From NCBI RefSeq assembly GCF_053078305.1, contig NZ_CP166879.1: a stretch of 64,000 nt of DNA; one strand, given 5' to 3'. Of this stretch, positions 24,070 to 27,953 are shown piece after piece. Positions within the stretch are counted from its first letter, which is position 1, and each line of letters opens with the position of its first letter. The notes below the pieces were generated by a model. It was not told the origin of the DNA and did not search any database. It worked only from the letters and a program-made list of their open reading frames with translations. A program made the translations under genes and the position numbers.

Positions 24070-24555
24070 ATGAAAACCATTTCACATAATTCCACCACAT
24101 CTTCTGTTTCCGTAACCGCTGCATCAGGGAATGACCAGCCTCAGTTGGTTGCCACCCTCGTCCCTGATGAACAGCGCATCAGCTTCTGGCCGCAGCACTT
24201 TGGCCTCATTCCACAGTGGGTGACCCTGGAGCCCCGTGTCTTCGGCTGGATGGACCGTCTGTGTGAAGACTACTGCGGTGGTATCTGGAATCTGTACACC
24301 CTGAACAACGGCGGGGCATTTATGGCACCCGAACCGGATGACGATGATGACGAAACATGGGTACTGTTCAATGCCATGAACGGTAACCGCGCTGAAATGA
24401 GTCCGGAAGCTGCCGGCATTGCTGCCTGTCTGATGACGTACAGTCATCATGCCTGTCGTACGGAGTGTTATGCCATGACGGTCCATTATTACCGGCTGCG
24501 GGATTACGCCCTGCAGCATCCGGAATGCAGCGCCATTATGCGCATCATCGACTGA
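24070..24555 (+). CDS. Antirestriction protein (YfjX/YafX/KlcA-like)
   Basis: 161 aa with acidic stretch PEPDDDDDETW; conserved position upstream of the RadC-like gene. Confidence 0.6.
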   Translation: MKTISHNSTTSSVSVTAASGNDQPQLVATLVPDEQRISFWPQHFGLIPQWVTLEPRVFGWMDRLCEDYCGGIWNLYTLNNGGAFMAPEPDDDDDETWVLFNAMNGNRAEMSPEAAGIAACLMTYSHHACRTECYAMTVHYYRLRDYALQHPECSAIMRIID

Positions 24556-24570
24556 ATGGAGAGAAGTACA

Positions 24571-25047
24571 ATGCAACAGCTTTCCTTTCTGCCCGGAGAG
24601 ATGACGCCCGGCGAGCGCAGCCTCATTCAACGGGCCCTGAAAACCCTGGACCGCCATCTTCATGAACCCGGCGTGGCCTTCACCTCCACCCGTGCGGCAC
24701 GAGAATGGCTGATTCTGAACATGGCGGGACTGGAGCGTGAAGAGTTCCGGGTGCTGTATCTGAACAACCAGAATCAGCTGATTGCCGGTGAAACCCTCTT
24801 CACCGGCACCATCAACCGCACGGAAGTCCATCCCCGTGAAGTGATTAAACGCGCCCTGTATCACAATGCCGCTGCTGTGGTGCTGGCACACAATCACCCG
24901 TCCGGTGAAGTCACACCCAGCAAGGCAGACCGCCTTATCACGGAACGTCTGGTACAGGCACTGGGCCTGGTGGATATCCGGGTGCCGGACCATCTGATAG
25001 TCGGTGGCAGCCAGGTTTTCTCCTTTGCCGAACATGGTCTGCTTTAA
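24571..25047 (+). CDS. RadC-like JAB-domain protein (YeeS/YfjY/YkfG family)
   Basis: JAMM motif HNHPSGEVTPSKAD; start set at ATG 24571 (GGAGAG upstream) to match the family N-terminus MQQLSF. Confidence 0.85.
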   Translation: MQQLSFLPGEMTPGERSLIQRALKTLDRHLHEPGVAFTSTRAAREWLILNMAGLEREEFRVLYLNNQNQLIAGETLFTGTINRTEVHPREVIKRALYHNAAAVVLAHNHPSGEVTPSKADRLITERLVQALGLVDIRVPDHLIVGGSQVFSFAEHGLL

Positions 25048-25109
25048 CCCGTCACAACCACATCACACCTGTTTTCACTTTTATCTTCTGTCTTCAGAGG
25101 TATCCCACT

Positions 25110-25331
25110 ATGAAAATCATCACCCGTGGCGAAGCCATGCGTATTCACCGTCAGCATCCGGCATCCCGTCTTTTTCCGTTCTGTACCGGCAAATACCGCT
25201 GGCACGGCAGTGCTGAAGCGTATACCGGTCGTGAAGTGCAGGATATTCCCGGTGTGCTGGCCGTGTTTGCAGAACGCCGTAAGGACAGTTTTGGTCCGTA
25301 TGTCCGGCTGATGAGCGTCACCCTGAACTGA
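25110..25331 (+). CDS. DUF987-family small protein (YeeT/YkfH-like)
   Basis: 73 aa; conserved position between the RadC-like gene and the antitoxin. Confidence 0.6.
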   Translation: MKIITRGEAMRIHRQHPASRLFPFCTGKYRWHGSAEAYTGREVQDIPGVLAVFAERRKDSFGPYVRLMSVTLN

Positions 25332-25493
25332 TGTTCCGTCACCCGGAAAACGAGTACGACTGGCTGAGCTCAGACGCCGCTGTGGATGAGGTCCTGCTCA
25401 TCAACGAATACACCTTTACCGAAGCCGGTCTGCGCGCCGGCTGACCCGTCATCGTTAAACTATCATTCACCGATTTTCTGTGAGGATTTTATC

Positions 25494-25862
25494 GTGTCAG
25501 ACACACTTTCCGGGACAACGCATCCCGATGACAATGACGACCATCCCTGGTGGGGACTACCCTGCACAGTGACGCCCTGTTTCGGCGCCCGTCTGGTGCA
25601 GGAGGGTAACCGCCTGCATTACCTTGCCGACCGCGCCGGTATCAGAGGCCTGTTCAGCGATGCAGATGCGTACCACCTGGACCAGGCCTTTCCGCTGCTG
25701 ATGAAACAACTGGAACTCATGCTCACCAGCGGTGAACTGAATCCCCGCCATCAGCATACCGTCACGCTGTATGCAAAAGGTCTGACCTGCAAAGCTGACA
25801 CTCTCGGTAGCGGTGGTTACGTTTATCTGGCTGTTTATCCGACGCCCGAAACGAAAAAGTAA
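25494..25862 (+). CDS. cbeA: CbeA/YeeU-family type IV antitoxin
   Basis: Near-identical to my recollection of YeeU ([33 protein letters not shown]); GTG start at 25494 inferred from the family N-terminus MSDTL. Could equally be the yfjZ/yafW paralog. Confidence 0.85.
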
Positions 25863-25951
25863 ACCACCGGAATAACCTTCTGCTCCGGCCTGGTGCTTTC
25901 ACCACGCCACTTTTCCATTTTTCATCTCTGCATATCAGGAAAACCTTCAGT

Positions 25952-26326
25952 ATGAAAACATTACCCGATACACACGTACGGGAGGCATCGAGCTGCCCGT
26001 CTCCCGTCACCATCTGGCAGACTCTGCTCTCCCGACTACTGGGCCAGCATTACGGCCTTACACTGAATGACACACCGTTCGCCGATGAACGTGTGATTGA
26101 GCAGCATATTGAAGCTGGCATTTCACTGTGTGATGCGGTGAATTTTCTCGTGGAAAAATACGCGCTGGTGCGTACCGACCAGCCGGGATTCAGCACTTGT
26201 CCCCGCTCTCAGTTAATAAACAGTATTGATATCCTCCGGGCTCGCAGGGCGACCGGCCTGATGACCCGCGACAATTACAGAACGGTAAATAACATTACCC
26301 TGGGTAAGCATCCGGAGAAACGATGA
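25952..26326 (+). CDS. cbtA: CbtA/YeeV-family cytoskeleton-targeting toxin
   Basis: 124 aa; [48 protein letters not shown] matches YeeV/YkfI/YpjF toxins. Confidence 0.85.
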
Positions 26327-26811
26327 AACTTTCCCTGATGCTGGAAGCCGACAGAATTAATGTGCAGGCACTGAACATGGGGCGAATTGTCGTTGACGTC
26401 GATGGTGTTAATCTCACTGAACTGATTAACAAGGTCGCTGAAAACGGTTATTCACTCCGCGTGGTGGAGGAATCCGACCAACAGTCAACCTGCACACTAC
26501 CACCGTTTGCAACCCTTGCCGGCATACGCTGCAGTACCGCACATATCACGGAAAAGGATAACGCCTGGCTGTACTCGCTGTCGCATCAGACCAGTGACGT
26601 TGGTGAATCAGAATGGATTCATTTCACAGGTAGCGGATATCTGTTACGTACCGATGCGTGGTCATATCCGGTTCTGCGGCTTAAACGCCTGGGGCTGTCA
26701 AAAACGTTCCGTCGTCTGGTTATCACACTTACCCGACGTTATGGCGTCAGTCTCATTCATCTGGATGCCAGCGCTGAATGCCTGCCGGGTTTACCCACTT
26801 TCAACTGGTAA
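26323..26811 (+). CDS. YeeW-like protein
   Basis: 162 aa ORF whose start overlaps the toxin stop by 4 nt; conserved position in these islands. Confidence 0.6.
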
Positions 26812-26822
26812 CCAGGAACAAC

Positions 26823-27020
26823 ATGAAATCATTAACCACGGAAACAGCACTGGATATTCTGATTGCGTGGCTGCAGGACAATATCGACTGCGAATCGGGA
26901 ATTATCTTTGACAACGATGAGGATAAAACGGATTCGGCAGCACTGCTGCCCTGCATTGAACAGGCGAGGGAGGATATCCATACCCTGCGCCAGGTGCAGC
27001 TTCTGCACCAGAACCAGTGA
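26823..27020 (+). CDS. Small island protein (about 65 aa)
   Basis: ORF with start at ATG 26823; family uncertain. Confidence 0.4.
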   Translation: MKSLTTETALDILIAWLQDNIDCESGIIFDNDEDKTDSAALLPCIEQAREDIHTLRQVQLLHQNQ

Positions 27021-27104
27021 ATATTACTCACCATACTTCATTCCACTGACGCCAGCCTGAACAGGGCTGGCGTTTTCATTTATCTGCAAAAAGGAATATC
27101 GATT

Positions 27105-27953
27105 ATGTCTGAACTCACAGCCTCCCGTCCGGAAGTGGTCAACGGACATACGGACGTTATCTGCTCAACCTCAGTCAGCCACATTCTGGCTGTACGAAAG
27201 AGTACACTGTTGCAAATCGACATACTTATCCGGCAACTGGCTGAAATCTCAGCAATGACAGAAAGTATTGGCGGTAAAACTGCTCTGGACTGGGCCATGA
27301 AACAGGATTTTCGCTGCGGCTGCTGGCTGACTGAGAAACCGGAAACCGCAATGAAAGCCATTACCCGCAACCTTGACCGTGAAATCTGGCGTGACCTGAT
27401 GCAACGTTCCGGGATGCTGTCATTAATGGATGCACAGGCACGTGATACATGGTACCGGTCACTGGAGTACGATAATTTTCCGGAAATCAGCGAAGCGAAC
27501 ATTCTGGGCACGTTTGAACAACTGCATCAGAATAAAGATGAGGTGTTTGAGCGAGGAGTCATCAACGTCTTCAGGGGACTGAGCTGGAATTACAAAACCA
27601 ACTCCCCCTGTAAATTTGGCAGTAAAATTATCGTCAACAACCTGGTGAGGTGGGACAGATGGGGATTGCATCTTATCACCGGGCAACAGGCAGATCGACT
27701 CGCCGACCTGGAAAGAATGCTACACCTGTTCAGCGGCAAACCGATCCCCGACAGCCGGGAAAATATCATCATTCGGCTGGATGATCACATCCGCTCCGTT
27801 CAGGGCAAAGTGTGCTATGAAGATGAGATGTTCAACATCAGATACTTTAAGAAGGGCTCCGCACACATCACGTTCAGGAAACCAGAACTGGTTGATCGGC
27901 TAAATGATATTATTGCGAAACATTATGCGGGAAAAGTATCTTCTTCAGTATAG
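27105..27953 (+). CDS. Hypothetical island-terminal protein (282 aa), possibly DUF4942-like
   Basis: Last ORF before the island / ulaE junction; family assignment is a tentative recollection. Confidence 0.4.
   Translation: MSELTASRPEVVNGHTDVICSTSVSHILAVRKSTLLQIDILIRQLAEISAMTESIGGKTALDWAMKQDFRCGCWLTEKPETAMKAITRNLDREIWRDLMQRSGMLSLMDAQARDTWYRSLEYDNFPEISEANILGTFEQLHQNKDEVFERGVINVFRGLSWNYKTNSPCKFGSKIIVNNLVRWDRWGLHLITGQQADRLADLERMLHLFSGKPIPDSRENIIIRLDDHIRSVQGKVCYEDEMFNIRYFKKGSAHITFRKPELVDRLNDIIAKHYAGKVSSSV

Follow-up and report, generated by a model that had tools for sequence, protein, structure and literature searches.

An intact right-end gene block, probably of the CP4-44 family, in an Escherichia coli island inserted in ulaE

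Does the region at 24070–27953 of the window (the whole 64,000-nucleotide stretch of DNA that was analysed) hold an intact set of island genes, and to which of the related modules of E. coli K-12 does it correspond? The region is composed of eight intact genes on the same strand, encoding ArdB, a RadC-like JAB protein, DUF987, CbeA, CbtA, DUF5983, DUF957 and DUF4942 proteins, and it very probably represents the whole right arm of an E. coli integrative island that belongs to the CP4-44 family. The preliminary description had claimed an intact block here, and all of the genes that it named are present at full length on the plus strand, while DUF957 and DUF4942, which lie within the same limits, had been left out of its list. 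Its assignment of the block to the CP4-57 type has to be replaced, given that protein identity is 65–78% to CP4-57 versus 88–99% to CP4-44, and that DNA identity to yfjX-yfjY-ypjJ-yfjZ-ypjF is 70–73%, below the CP4-44 value. The paralogue alignment that it had proposed (ypjF/yfjZ, ykfI/yafW and cbtA/cbeA) places the block with CP4-44 (cbtA/cbeA), and a search for an inactivating substitution or a truncation of the toxin found neither, nor any frameshift. The window DNA is a 100% match to an annotated RefSeq genome, which together with the Pfam E-values rules out chance, and PGAP annotation exists for the identical DNA in strain GPEC1176. The block is an intact, ordinary copy of a known gene set, and the finding as such is already known.

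Gene content and organization of the block

The first gene (24070–24555, plus strand) encodes a 161-residue ArdB/KlcA-family antirestriction protein that covers the entire PF03230 profile (positions 1–92 of 92, E 2e-37). Alignment with ArdB of CFT073 (PDB 2WJ9, E 3e-100) shows only two differences from residue 27 to the end (L30I and D66N), whereas the N-terminal 26 residues are divergent and include a 4-residue difference in length. The protein is distant from KlcA of plasmid RK2 (PDB 2KMG, E 5e-21), with which it has the family PF03230 in common. CFT073 ArdB is reported, in the paper on its structure, to counter type I restriction in vivo (PMC2836571). The next gene (24571–25047, plus strand) encodes a 158-residue RadC-like JAB/JAMM protein (PF04002, E 1.5e-44), the orthologue of YeeS, with another possible ATG at 24556 that would give 163 residues. 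It is 99.3% identical to K-12 YeeS, aligns with PDB 2QLC (E 3e-25), and its translation retains the JAMM zinc motif H-x-H-x7-S-x2-D intact (HNHPSGEVTPSKAD, reading H-N-H-P-S-G-x3-P-S-x2-D). The CP4-57 homologue LfgB (YfjY) has been reported to be a protease, with purity caveats noted by the authors, and yfjXY-ypjJ-yfjZF to form one operon (PMC10846083). The LfgB paralogue is only 78% identical to the window protein, which we count against the favoured explanation of the block. The 73-residue DUF987 protein (25110–25331, plus strand; PF06174, E 1.5e-40) is the orthologue of YeeT, with 97.3% identity to the K-12 protein.

The type IV antitoxin CbeA (YeeU; 122 residues, 25494–25862, plus strand; PF06154, E 1e-52) starts at the GTG at 25494, which is served by a GAGGA Shine-Dalgarno sequence. 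It is 92.6% identical to K-12 CbeA (dN/dS 0.15) and matches the YeeU structure (PDB 2H28, E 4e-76). The gene is positioned directly upstream of cbtA on the same strand at a distance of 89 nt, and the predicted fold of this spacer is not significant (z-score −1.7). The toxin CbtA (YeeV; 124 residues, 25952–26326, plus strand) covers the CbtA_toxin profile from 1 to 112 of 112 (PF06755, E 1e-61), so that the full-length toxin and antitoxin frames described earlier are borne out. It is equal in length and 87.9% identical to K-12 CbtA (dN/dS 0.30), with 65% identity to YpjF and 61% to YkfI, and the exact cbeA-cbtA allele is found at 99% identity or above in 199 complete-genome records. By these features of sequence, the system would be classed as a CbtA/CbeA type IV pair, and as the CP4-44 paralogue.

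The toxin stop does overlap the next start, as had been described, in an ATGA at 26323–26326 (TGA 26324–26326 over ATG 26323–26325). Each of the seven alleles compared shows the same 4-nt overlap, and cbtA and the following gene are translationally coupled. That gene (26323–26811, plus strand) encodes a 162-residue DUF5983 protein, the full-length form of YeeW, which matches both Pfam halves (PF25638 and PF19419) and whose database homologues are mostly also 162 residues long. Its AlphaFold2 model, built from a shallow alignment of 18 sequences, has a pLDDT of 37, too low to be of use. The 65-residue DUF957 protein (26823–27020, plus strand) is named from the PGAP annotation of the identical sequence and has no match in the current Pfam-A library; its gene is equipped with a separate Shine-Dalgarno sequence (AGGA) and ATG, in a start context (ACA-ACATG) that is conserved across alleles.

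The last gene of the island (27105–27953, plus strand) encodes a 282-residue DUF4942 protein (PF13708, E 4e-69) that is modeled with a pLDDT of 89.8 and has no relative among solved structures. Longer relatives of about 460 residues have a class I SAM methyltransferase domain at the C-terminus, and the window protein aligns with the N-terminal half of PHROG 6263, annotated "DNA methyltransferase". It corresponds to the N-terminal domain of certain phage DNA methyltransferases, here encoded on its own. We do not class it as a methyltransferase, since PF13708 is its only match and methyltransferase domains are found only in the relatives of about 460 residues.

Just upstream of the block, a DUF932 gene of the YfjQ/YafZ family (23197–24015, plus strand; PF06067, E 7e-52; 75% protein identity to K-12 YfjQ and YafZ) is preceded by an AAGGAG Shine-Dalgarno sequence and, further upstream, by a terminator-like hairpin at 23119–23148. 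Each of the eight module genes also has a Shine-Dalgarno sequence. A second terminator-like hairpin is found at 27048–27074 on the plus strand (11-bp stem with seven G-C pairs, T-rich tail), and between 23197 and this hairpin no strong-stemmed terminator-like site occurs, so the genes from DUF932 through ArdB, RadC, DUF987, CbeA, CbtA and DUF5983 to DUF957 are readable as one unit. DUF932 is probably the first gene of this transcription unit, and the hairpin can be read as closing it, which leaves DUF4942 as a last gene on its own. A consensus scan of the plus strand within the module found no sigma-70-like promoter, which we also count against the favoured explanation.

None of the nine module proteins matches a PADLOC defence-system model, and an NCBIfam search of the module proteins returned RadC only. 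An Rfam scan of 22700–28300 revealed no real RNA element, and repeats within the module are limited to short matches at chance level. An antisense open reading frame at 24124–25035 (303 aa) and an alternative-frame one at 26507–26911 (134 aa), neither with a family match, were treated as non-coding.

Predicted role of the block and alternative explanations

We infer the activity of the module from homology to tested K-12 and CFT073 proteins, and on this basis the block may specify both a functional toxin-antitoxin pair of type IV and a means of antirestriction. CbtA, having retained F65, is predicted to halt cell division by binding FtsZ, and would probably also stop elongation through MreB. 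CbeA is expected to counter the toxin without binding it, by bundling FtsZ and MreB filaments, as in type IV systems, and by homology the pair may secure the island's retention in the chromosome or play a part in stress responses. ArdB would block type I restriction as the island enters a new host, and the RadC-like protein is a putative JAMM zinc protease. Such a module would be the undecayed form of the segment left in K-12 as yeeS-yeeT-cbeA-cbtA-yeeW'.

F65, the FtsZ determinant, is invariant in all nine aligned toxins, that of the window included, and F65S abolishes FtsZ binding (Heller 2017, PMC5624674). Residue 15 is cysteine in the window and arginine in K-12. In K-12 CbtA the R15C substitution abolishes MreB binding and leaves toxicity in place, while YpjF, which naturally has C15, still binds MreB, and C15R is without effect there (Heller 2017, PMC5624674). 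R15 is a determinant of MreB binding only in the background of K-12 CbtA and does not define the family. C15 is present in six of the seven CbtA-type alleles, as well as in YpjF and YkfI, and is the family norm. For this reason, and because K-12 CbtA R15C stays toxic through FtsZ (PMC5624674), C15 was ruled out as an inactivating change. The window and K-12 toxins differ at 15 positions, ten of which (R15C among them) fall within residues 6–31, the stretch that includes the MreB determinant, which makes MreB targeting by the window allele uncertain.

A different explanation is that a cryptic element in decay carries the block as inert cargo, with frames that are open only through recency and products of consequence to neither cell nor island. 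Decay is plain to see in the K-12 copies of the module, where 3.3 kb and 0.47 kb are deleted compared with the window copy, and the lack of a promoter-like site within the module fits this account as well. In K-12 the toxins have been shown to be toxic only when overproduced, and deletion of all three is reported to give mild phenotypes (PMC5371832). Against this account, dN/dS is 0.03–0.30 in all six comparable genes, relative to K-12 paralogues with dS up to about 2, as expected under purifying selection; alleles as divergent as 86% DNA identity still show the gene order, the ATGA coupling and the start contexts; and the block is near full length in several thousand genomes, at least 80% of it being present in 3699 of the 5426 complete E. 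coli genomes. We regard inert cargo as very unlikely, and favour the complete CP4-44-family right arm.

The coupling of DUF5983 to cbtA raises the possibility of a three-part system in which DUF5983 serves as a further modulator of CbtA, be it an antitoxin, a chaperone or a target adaptor. Conservation of the ATGA overlap across the alleles is in line with this proposal, as are a genome survey in which DUF5983 is always found directly downstream of CbtA (PMC10790755) and a 2026 preprint that describes this linkage for several genera (10.64898/2026.06.09.728211). Linkage alone is, however, also expected for any gene that hitch-hikes in a conserved operon, K-12 CbtA/CbeA acts as a complete pair despite a YeeW of 64 residues, and the low-confidence DUF5983 model offers no hint of a fold; we consider the three-part system rather unlikely. 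That DUF5983 may be a third toxin partner is offered tentatively, and with the same reserve we suggest that the common CbtA form with the C15/"DTHVRE" N-terminus, which the window carries, may target MreB in a manner unlike that of the K-12 R15 form, or not at all. Full-length DUF5983 is missing from all functional work on CbtA/CbeA because yeeW is truncated in K-12, and if the protein does modulate the toxin, the two-gene description based on K-12 would be incomplete. The preprint also puts forward, for a DUF5983/ANF00264 pair, the idea of frameshifting (10.64898/2026.06.09.728211), which in the window would take the form of a programmed −1 shift on G_GGT_TTA (26787–26793) that fuses DUF5983 and DUF957 into a 232-residue protein. 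The heptamer is of the canonical X_XXY_YYZ form, in correct phase within the 34 nt over which the two frames overlap, and a few database proteins do join DUF5983 and DUF957 parts. Yet it is broken (GGATTTA) in two of the seven alleles, and the spacer from the DUF5983 stop to the DUF957 ATG is 11, 16 or 19 nt, which means that the relative frame is not conserved. The listed fused proteins are mostly single-sequence clusters from one contig each that switch frame at differing places, some via the third frame, as indel errors would give, and DUF957 has conserved initiation signals of its own. We consider such a shift extremely improbable, and reject it on the lack of conservation of the heptamer and the relative frame among the seven alleles.

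Taken alone the module matters little, and its value is mainly for annotation. Read as a complete CP4-44-family right arm, it would provide the island with a complete and, as judged from the sequence, probably functional stabilisation and establishment block, formed by the type IV pair and ArdB. K-12 is a poor reference for this block, since its copy is without ArdB, most of YeeW, DUF957 and DUF4942, and its toxin has the atypical R15. DUF987, DUF5983, DUF957 and DUF4942 are all conserved genes, found at the terminus of an island family that is very widespread.

Comparison with the islands of K-12 and with ula-site islands

The right arm of K-12 CP4-44 (flu-yeeR-yeeS-yeeT-cbeA-cbtA-yeeW) is colinear with the window at 89–97% DNA identity, and its proteins are 88–99% identical to the window copies. 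The two have in common the GTG start of cbeA, the ATGA overlap of cbtA and yeeW, and a cbeA-cbtA spacer of 88–89 nt that is 94% identical; the DUF987-cbeA spacer, in contrast, is 162 nt in the window versus 73 nt in CP4-44. Relative to the window, CP4-44 has deletions corresponding to 21259–24594 (3.3 kb) and 26472–26937 (0.47 kb). It lacks the YeeR C-terminus, IrmA, DUF905, DUF932 and ArdB, and also the first ten codons of RadC, the C-terminal part of DUF5983, DUF957 and DUF4942, all of which the window retains.

CP4-57 (lfgA/yfjX-lfgB/yfjY-ypjJ-yfjZ-ypjF) and CP4-6 (yafX-ykfG-ykfH-yafW-ykfI) of K-12 have five core families in the same order as the window, with 61–82% protein and 68–76% DNA identity. 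Toxin and antitoxin identities are 61–67% to these two modules versus 88% and 93% to K-12 CbtA and CbeA, and DNA identity of cbtA/cbeA is 89% to CP4-44 versus about 70% to the other paralogues. The toxins (109–113 residues) and antitoxins (105 residues) of CP4-57 and CP4-6 are shorter than those of the window, though C15 and F65 of the toxin are common to all three. The CP4-57 and CP4-6 modules are paralogues that are not of the window copy's type.

Genomic islands of a common E. coli family terminate in this block, of which most sequenced E. coli have several copies; cbtA is present in roughly 13,500 copies across the complete E. coli genomes. Whereas K-12 CP4-44 is located elsewhere in the chromosome, the module of the window lies at the right end of an island that has ulaE, next to ulaD, as its insertion site, and the right-end attachment repeat TCCCCGGCGGGGAG (28160–28173) at the island/ulaE junction marks the end of the element. 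The site "ula: ulaE - ulaD" is listed as an integration site of pathogenicity islands in uropathogenic E. coli (Biggel et al. 2020, PMC7686366), and as a point of difference from those islands, the cargo seen within the window consists of Ag43, IrmA and a YeeR-like protein.

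Gene content and integrity of the module

The ORF list and a Pfam scan of the window place eight intact plus-strand genes at 24070–27953. These encode an ArdB-type antirestriction protein (24070–24555; PF03230, E 2e-37), a RadC-like JAB protein (24556 or 24571 to 25047; PF04002, E 1.5e-44), DUF987 (25110–25331; E 1.5e-40), CbeA with a GTG start (25494–25862; PF06154, E 1e-52), CbtA (25952–26326; PF06755, E 1e-61 over the whole profile), DUF5983 (26323–26811; PF25638 plus PF19419), DUF957 (26823–27020, 65 aa; named by PGAP, with no match in current Pfam-A) and DUF4942 (27105–27953; PF13708, E 4e-69). 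A recognizable Shine-Dalgarno sequence precedes all eight genes, cbtA ends and DUF5983 begins within a single ATGA at 26323–26326, and the module interval has a 100% identical counterpart in the annotated genome of E. coli GPEC1176. The preliminary description of an intact module in which the toxin stop overlaps the next start is thereby confirmed; its title was right for the genes that it named and left out the last two, DUF957 and DUF4942. An antisense ORF opposite ArdB/RadC (24124–25035, minus strand, 303 aa) has no family match.

No internal stop or frameshift was found in the module genes, and dN/dS against the K-12 paralogues (Nei-Gojobori) was 0.03–0.30 in all six comparable genes over dS values up to ~2, which argues for long-term purifying selection. 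K-12 CbtA differs from the window CbtA at 15 positions, 10 of them within residues 6–31 and including R15C. In K-12 CbtA, R15C has been shown to abolish MreB binding, the protein still being toxic and forming filaments, and F65S to abolish FtsZ binding (Heller et al. 2017, PMC5624674); C15 is natural in the paralogous toxins YpjF and YkfI, and YpjF binds MreB regardless, C15R being without effect there (PMC5624674). When seven CbtA-type alleles were aligned with YpjF and YkfI, F65 was invariant and C15 was present in every toxin but K-12 CbtA, so that by this alignment C15 is the norm and no defect. With all frames intact and CbtA spanning its full profile, neither an inactivating substitution nor a truncated toxin was found. 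The cbeA-cbtA DNA of the window recurs at 99% identity or above in 199 records of complete genomes, O26 and O103 STEC among them.

Terminator-like hairpins are positioned at 22810–22838, 23119–23148 and 27048–27074, and gene spacings between the latter two range from −4 to 162 nt; this layout allows DUF932 (23197–24015) to DUF957 to be interpreted as a single unit and leaves DUF4942 on its own as the last gene. A consensus scan found no plus-strand promoter consensus in the module. A nearly identical tail, TTT(T/C)ATTTAT, follows each of the three hairpins, which suggests a terminator/spacer cassette reused between island gene blocks.

Companion proteins and the DUF5983/DUF957 pair

The ArdB protein differs from CFT073 ArdB (PDB 2WJ9) at two positions from residue 27 to the end; the paper on 2WJ9 reports that type I restriction is countered in vivo and not in vitro (PMC2836571). 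In the RadC-like protein, which can be aligned with PDB 2QLC, the JAMM motif reads HNHPSGEVTPSKAD. YfjY/LfgB, the CP4-57 paralogue of this protein, is a reported protease that degrades MqsA, and yfjXY-ypjJ-yfjZF is treated as one operon (PMC10846083). None of nine module proteins matched the PADLOC defence models.

Two further readings were considered and rejected. DUF4942, for which a confident AlphaFold2 model (pLDDT 89.8) has no relative among solved structures, matches PHROG 6263, "DNA methyltransferase", over the N-terminal half of that family, and the top structural match among viral proteins is one of 531 aa that bears the name type I restriction enzyme; relatives of ~460 aa have an extra C-terminal class I SAM methyltransferase domain. 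Because this catalytic domain is missing from the island protein, it was not filed as a methyltransferase. A programmed frameshift between DUF5983 and a downstream family has been suggested in a 2026 preprint, and the window contains a canonical G_GGT_TTA heptamer where the DUF5983 and DUF957 frames overlap for 34 nt. The heptamer is broken in two of seven alleles, the spacer is 11, 16 or 19 nt among them so that the relative frame varies, the fused database proteins listed mostly form clusters of one sequence each, with frame switches at differing points, and DUF957 has a conserved start of its own.

The ATGA coupling of cbtA to DUF5983 is kept in all seven alleles, and a genome survey found DUF5983 invariably directly downstream of CbtA (PMC10790755); together these give full-length YeeW (DUF5983) a modest chance of being a functional toxin partner. 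The AlphaFold2 model of DUF5983 was unusable (pLDDT 37). A third-frame ORF within it (26507–26911, plus strand, 134 aa) has no family match and is the frame read through by some erroneous "fused" database proteins. AntiFam entry ANF00264, which adjoins DUF5983 in the 2026 preprint, may be the same protein as DUF957.

Island ends, strain comparison and prevalence

The module forms the right end of an island inserted within ulaE after nt 56: the first 56 nt of ulaE occupy 28160–28215 and are followed by island DNA, with ulaD at 28225–28875. Since ulaE is split, the ascorbate operon is probably disrupted. At the left junction in GPEC1176 (stretch L005, 6743–6760), beside a tyrosine integrase and ~61 kb from the right end, ulaE resumes at the 14-bp CTCCCCGCCGGGGA, a near-palindrome (ulaE orientation) that flanks the island as a direct repeat. 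Integration of pathogenicity islands at this site, listed as "ula: ulaE-ulaD", has been published (PMC7686366), and 63 of 5426 complete genomes carry the right junction. Some 70 bp in from the right end, at 28079–28099, TGGGGGCTA occurs as a doublet at 12-bp spacing; in GPEC1176 the same doublet, unchanged in orientation, is found at the left end a short distance upstream of the integrase gene (L005 6895–6915). Both are candidate arm-type integrase binding sites.

The window does not come from GPEC1176: 24000–27999 is identical, but the chromosomal genes on either side (ula, yjf, rnr and others) diverge by ~1–7% per kb (window 9310–47954 against GPEC1176 stretch L001), and no complete genome in the collection matched the whole stretch at >98%. 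That one island allele occupies this site in two different chromosomal backgrounds suggests horizontal transfer or recombination. On this comparison the island interior is mosaic between strains. Window 1–3438 is without counterpart in the GPEC1176 stretches compared, and an IS2 insertion in GPEC1176 (L001 3909–5239) is missing from the window (~9310). Three tandem tRNA-Gly(GCC) genes (58405–58703, minus strand) lie in ordinary chromosomal context far from the island.

Judged from sequence, the module is real, intact and probably functional. It is also an entirely ordinary one: of 5426 complete E. coli genomes, 3699 contain at least 80% of the block, with a median of three matching loci in each. 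Every component family has been described before.

Comparison with the K-12 elements

Window proteins and DNA were aligned with the K-12 MG1655 copies in CP4-44, CP4-57 and CP4-6, the comparison with ypjF/yfjZ, ykfI/yafW and cbtA/cbeA that had been proposed, and the pair was assigned to CP4-44 cbtA/cbeA. Protein identities to the CP4-44 copies and to the CP4-57 and CP4-6 copies, respectively, are 99.3% (YeeS) and 78–82% for RadC, 97.3% (YeeT) and 66–67% for DUF987, 92.6% (CbeA) and 62–67% for the antitoxin, and 87.9% (CbtA) and 61–65% for the toxin. CP4-44 DNA is colinear with the window through yeeP remnant-flu-yeeR-yeeS-yeeT-cbeA-cbtA at 89–97% identity, whereas CP4-57 and CP4-6 match at only 68–76%; the earlier label "CP4-57-type" is thus wrong in detail.

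Several local features also bear comparison. An Rfam match to the IS102/IsrC small RNA (16240–16476; 74.7 bits against a gathering threshold of 46) sits just ahead of the Ag43 gene (16420–19617) and runs into its start, the same placement as in K-12 isrC-flu. The YeeR-like protein (19732–22254), 840 aa in the window and 510 aa in K-12, where a 3.3-kb deletion shortens it, is without a clear Pfam family and gives weak PADLOC matches to candidate system PDC-M09B (E 5e-6). The DUF987-cbeA spacer (25332–25493) measures 162 nt in the window, as in several other alleles, against 73–79 nt in K-12 and certain further alleles, and the long and short forms have only their final ~47 nt in common. A start at the in-frame ATG at 25386 would lengthen CbeA by 36 aa, but this codon lacks a Shine-Dalgarno sequence.

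K-12 CP4-44 has one deletion corresponding to window 21259–24594, removing the YeeR C-terminus, IrmA, DUF905, DUF932, ArdB and the first 10 codons of RadC, and a second corresponding to 26472–26937, removing the C-terminal end of DUF5983 together with the beginning of DUF957; DUF4942, present in the window, is absent from K-12. By this alignment, the right arm of CP4-44 is therefore complete in the window.
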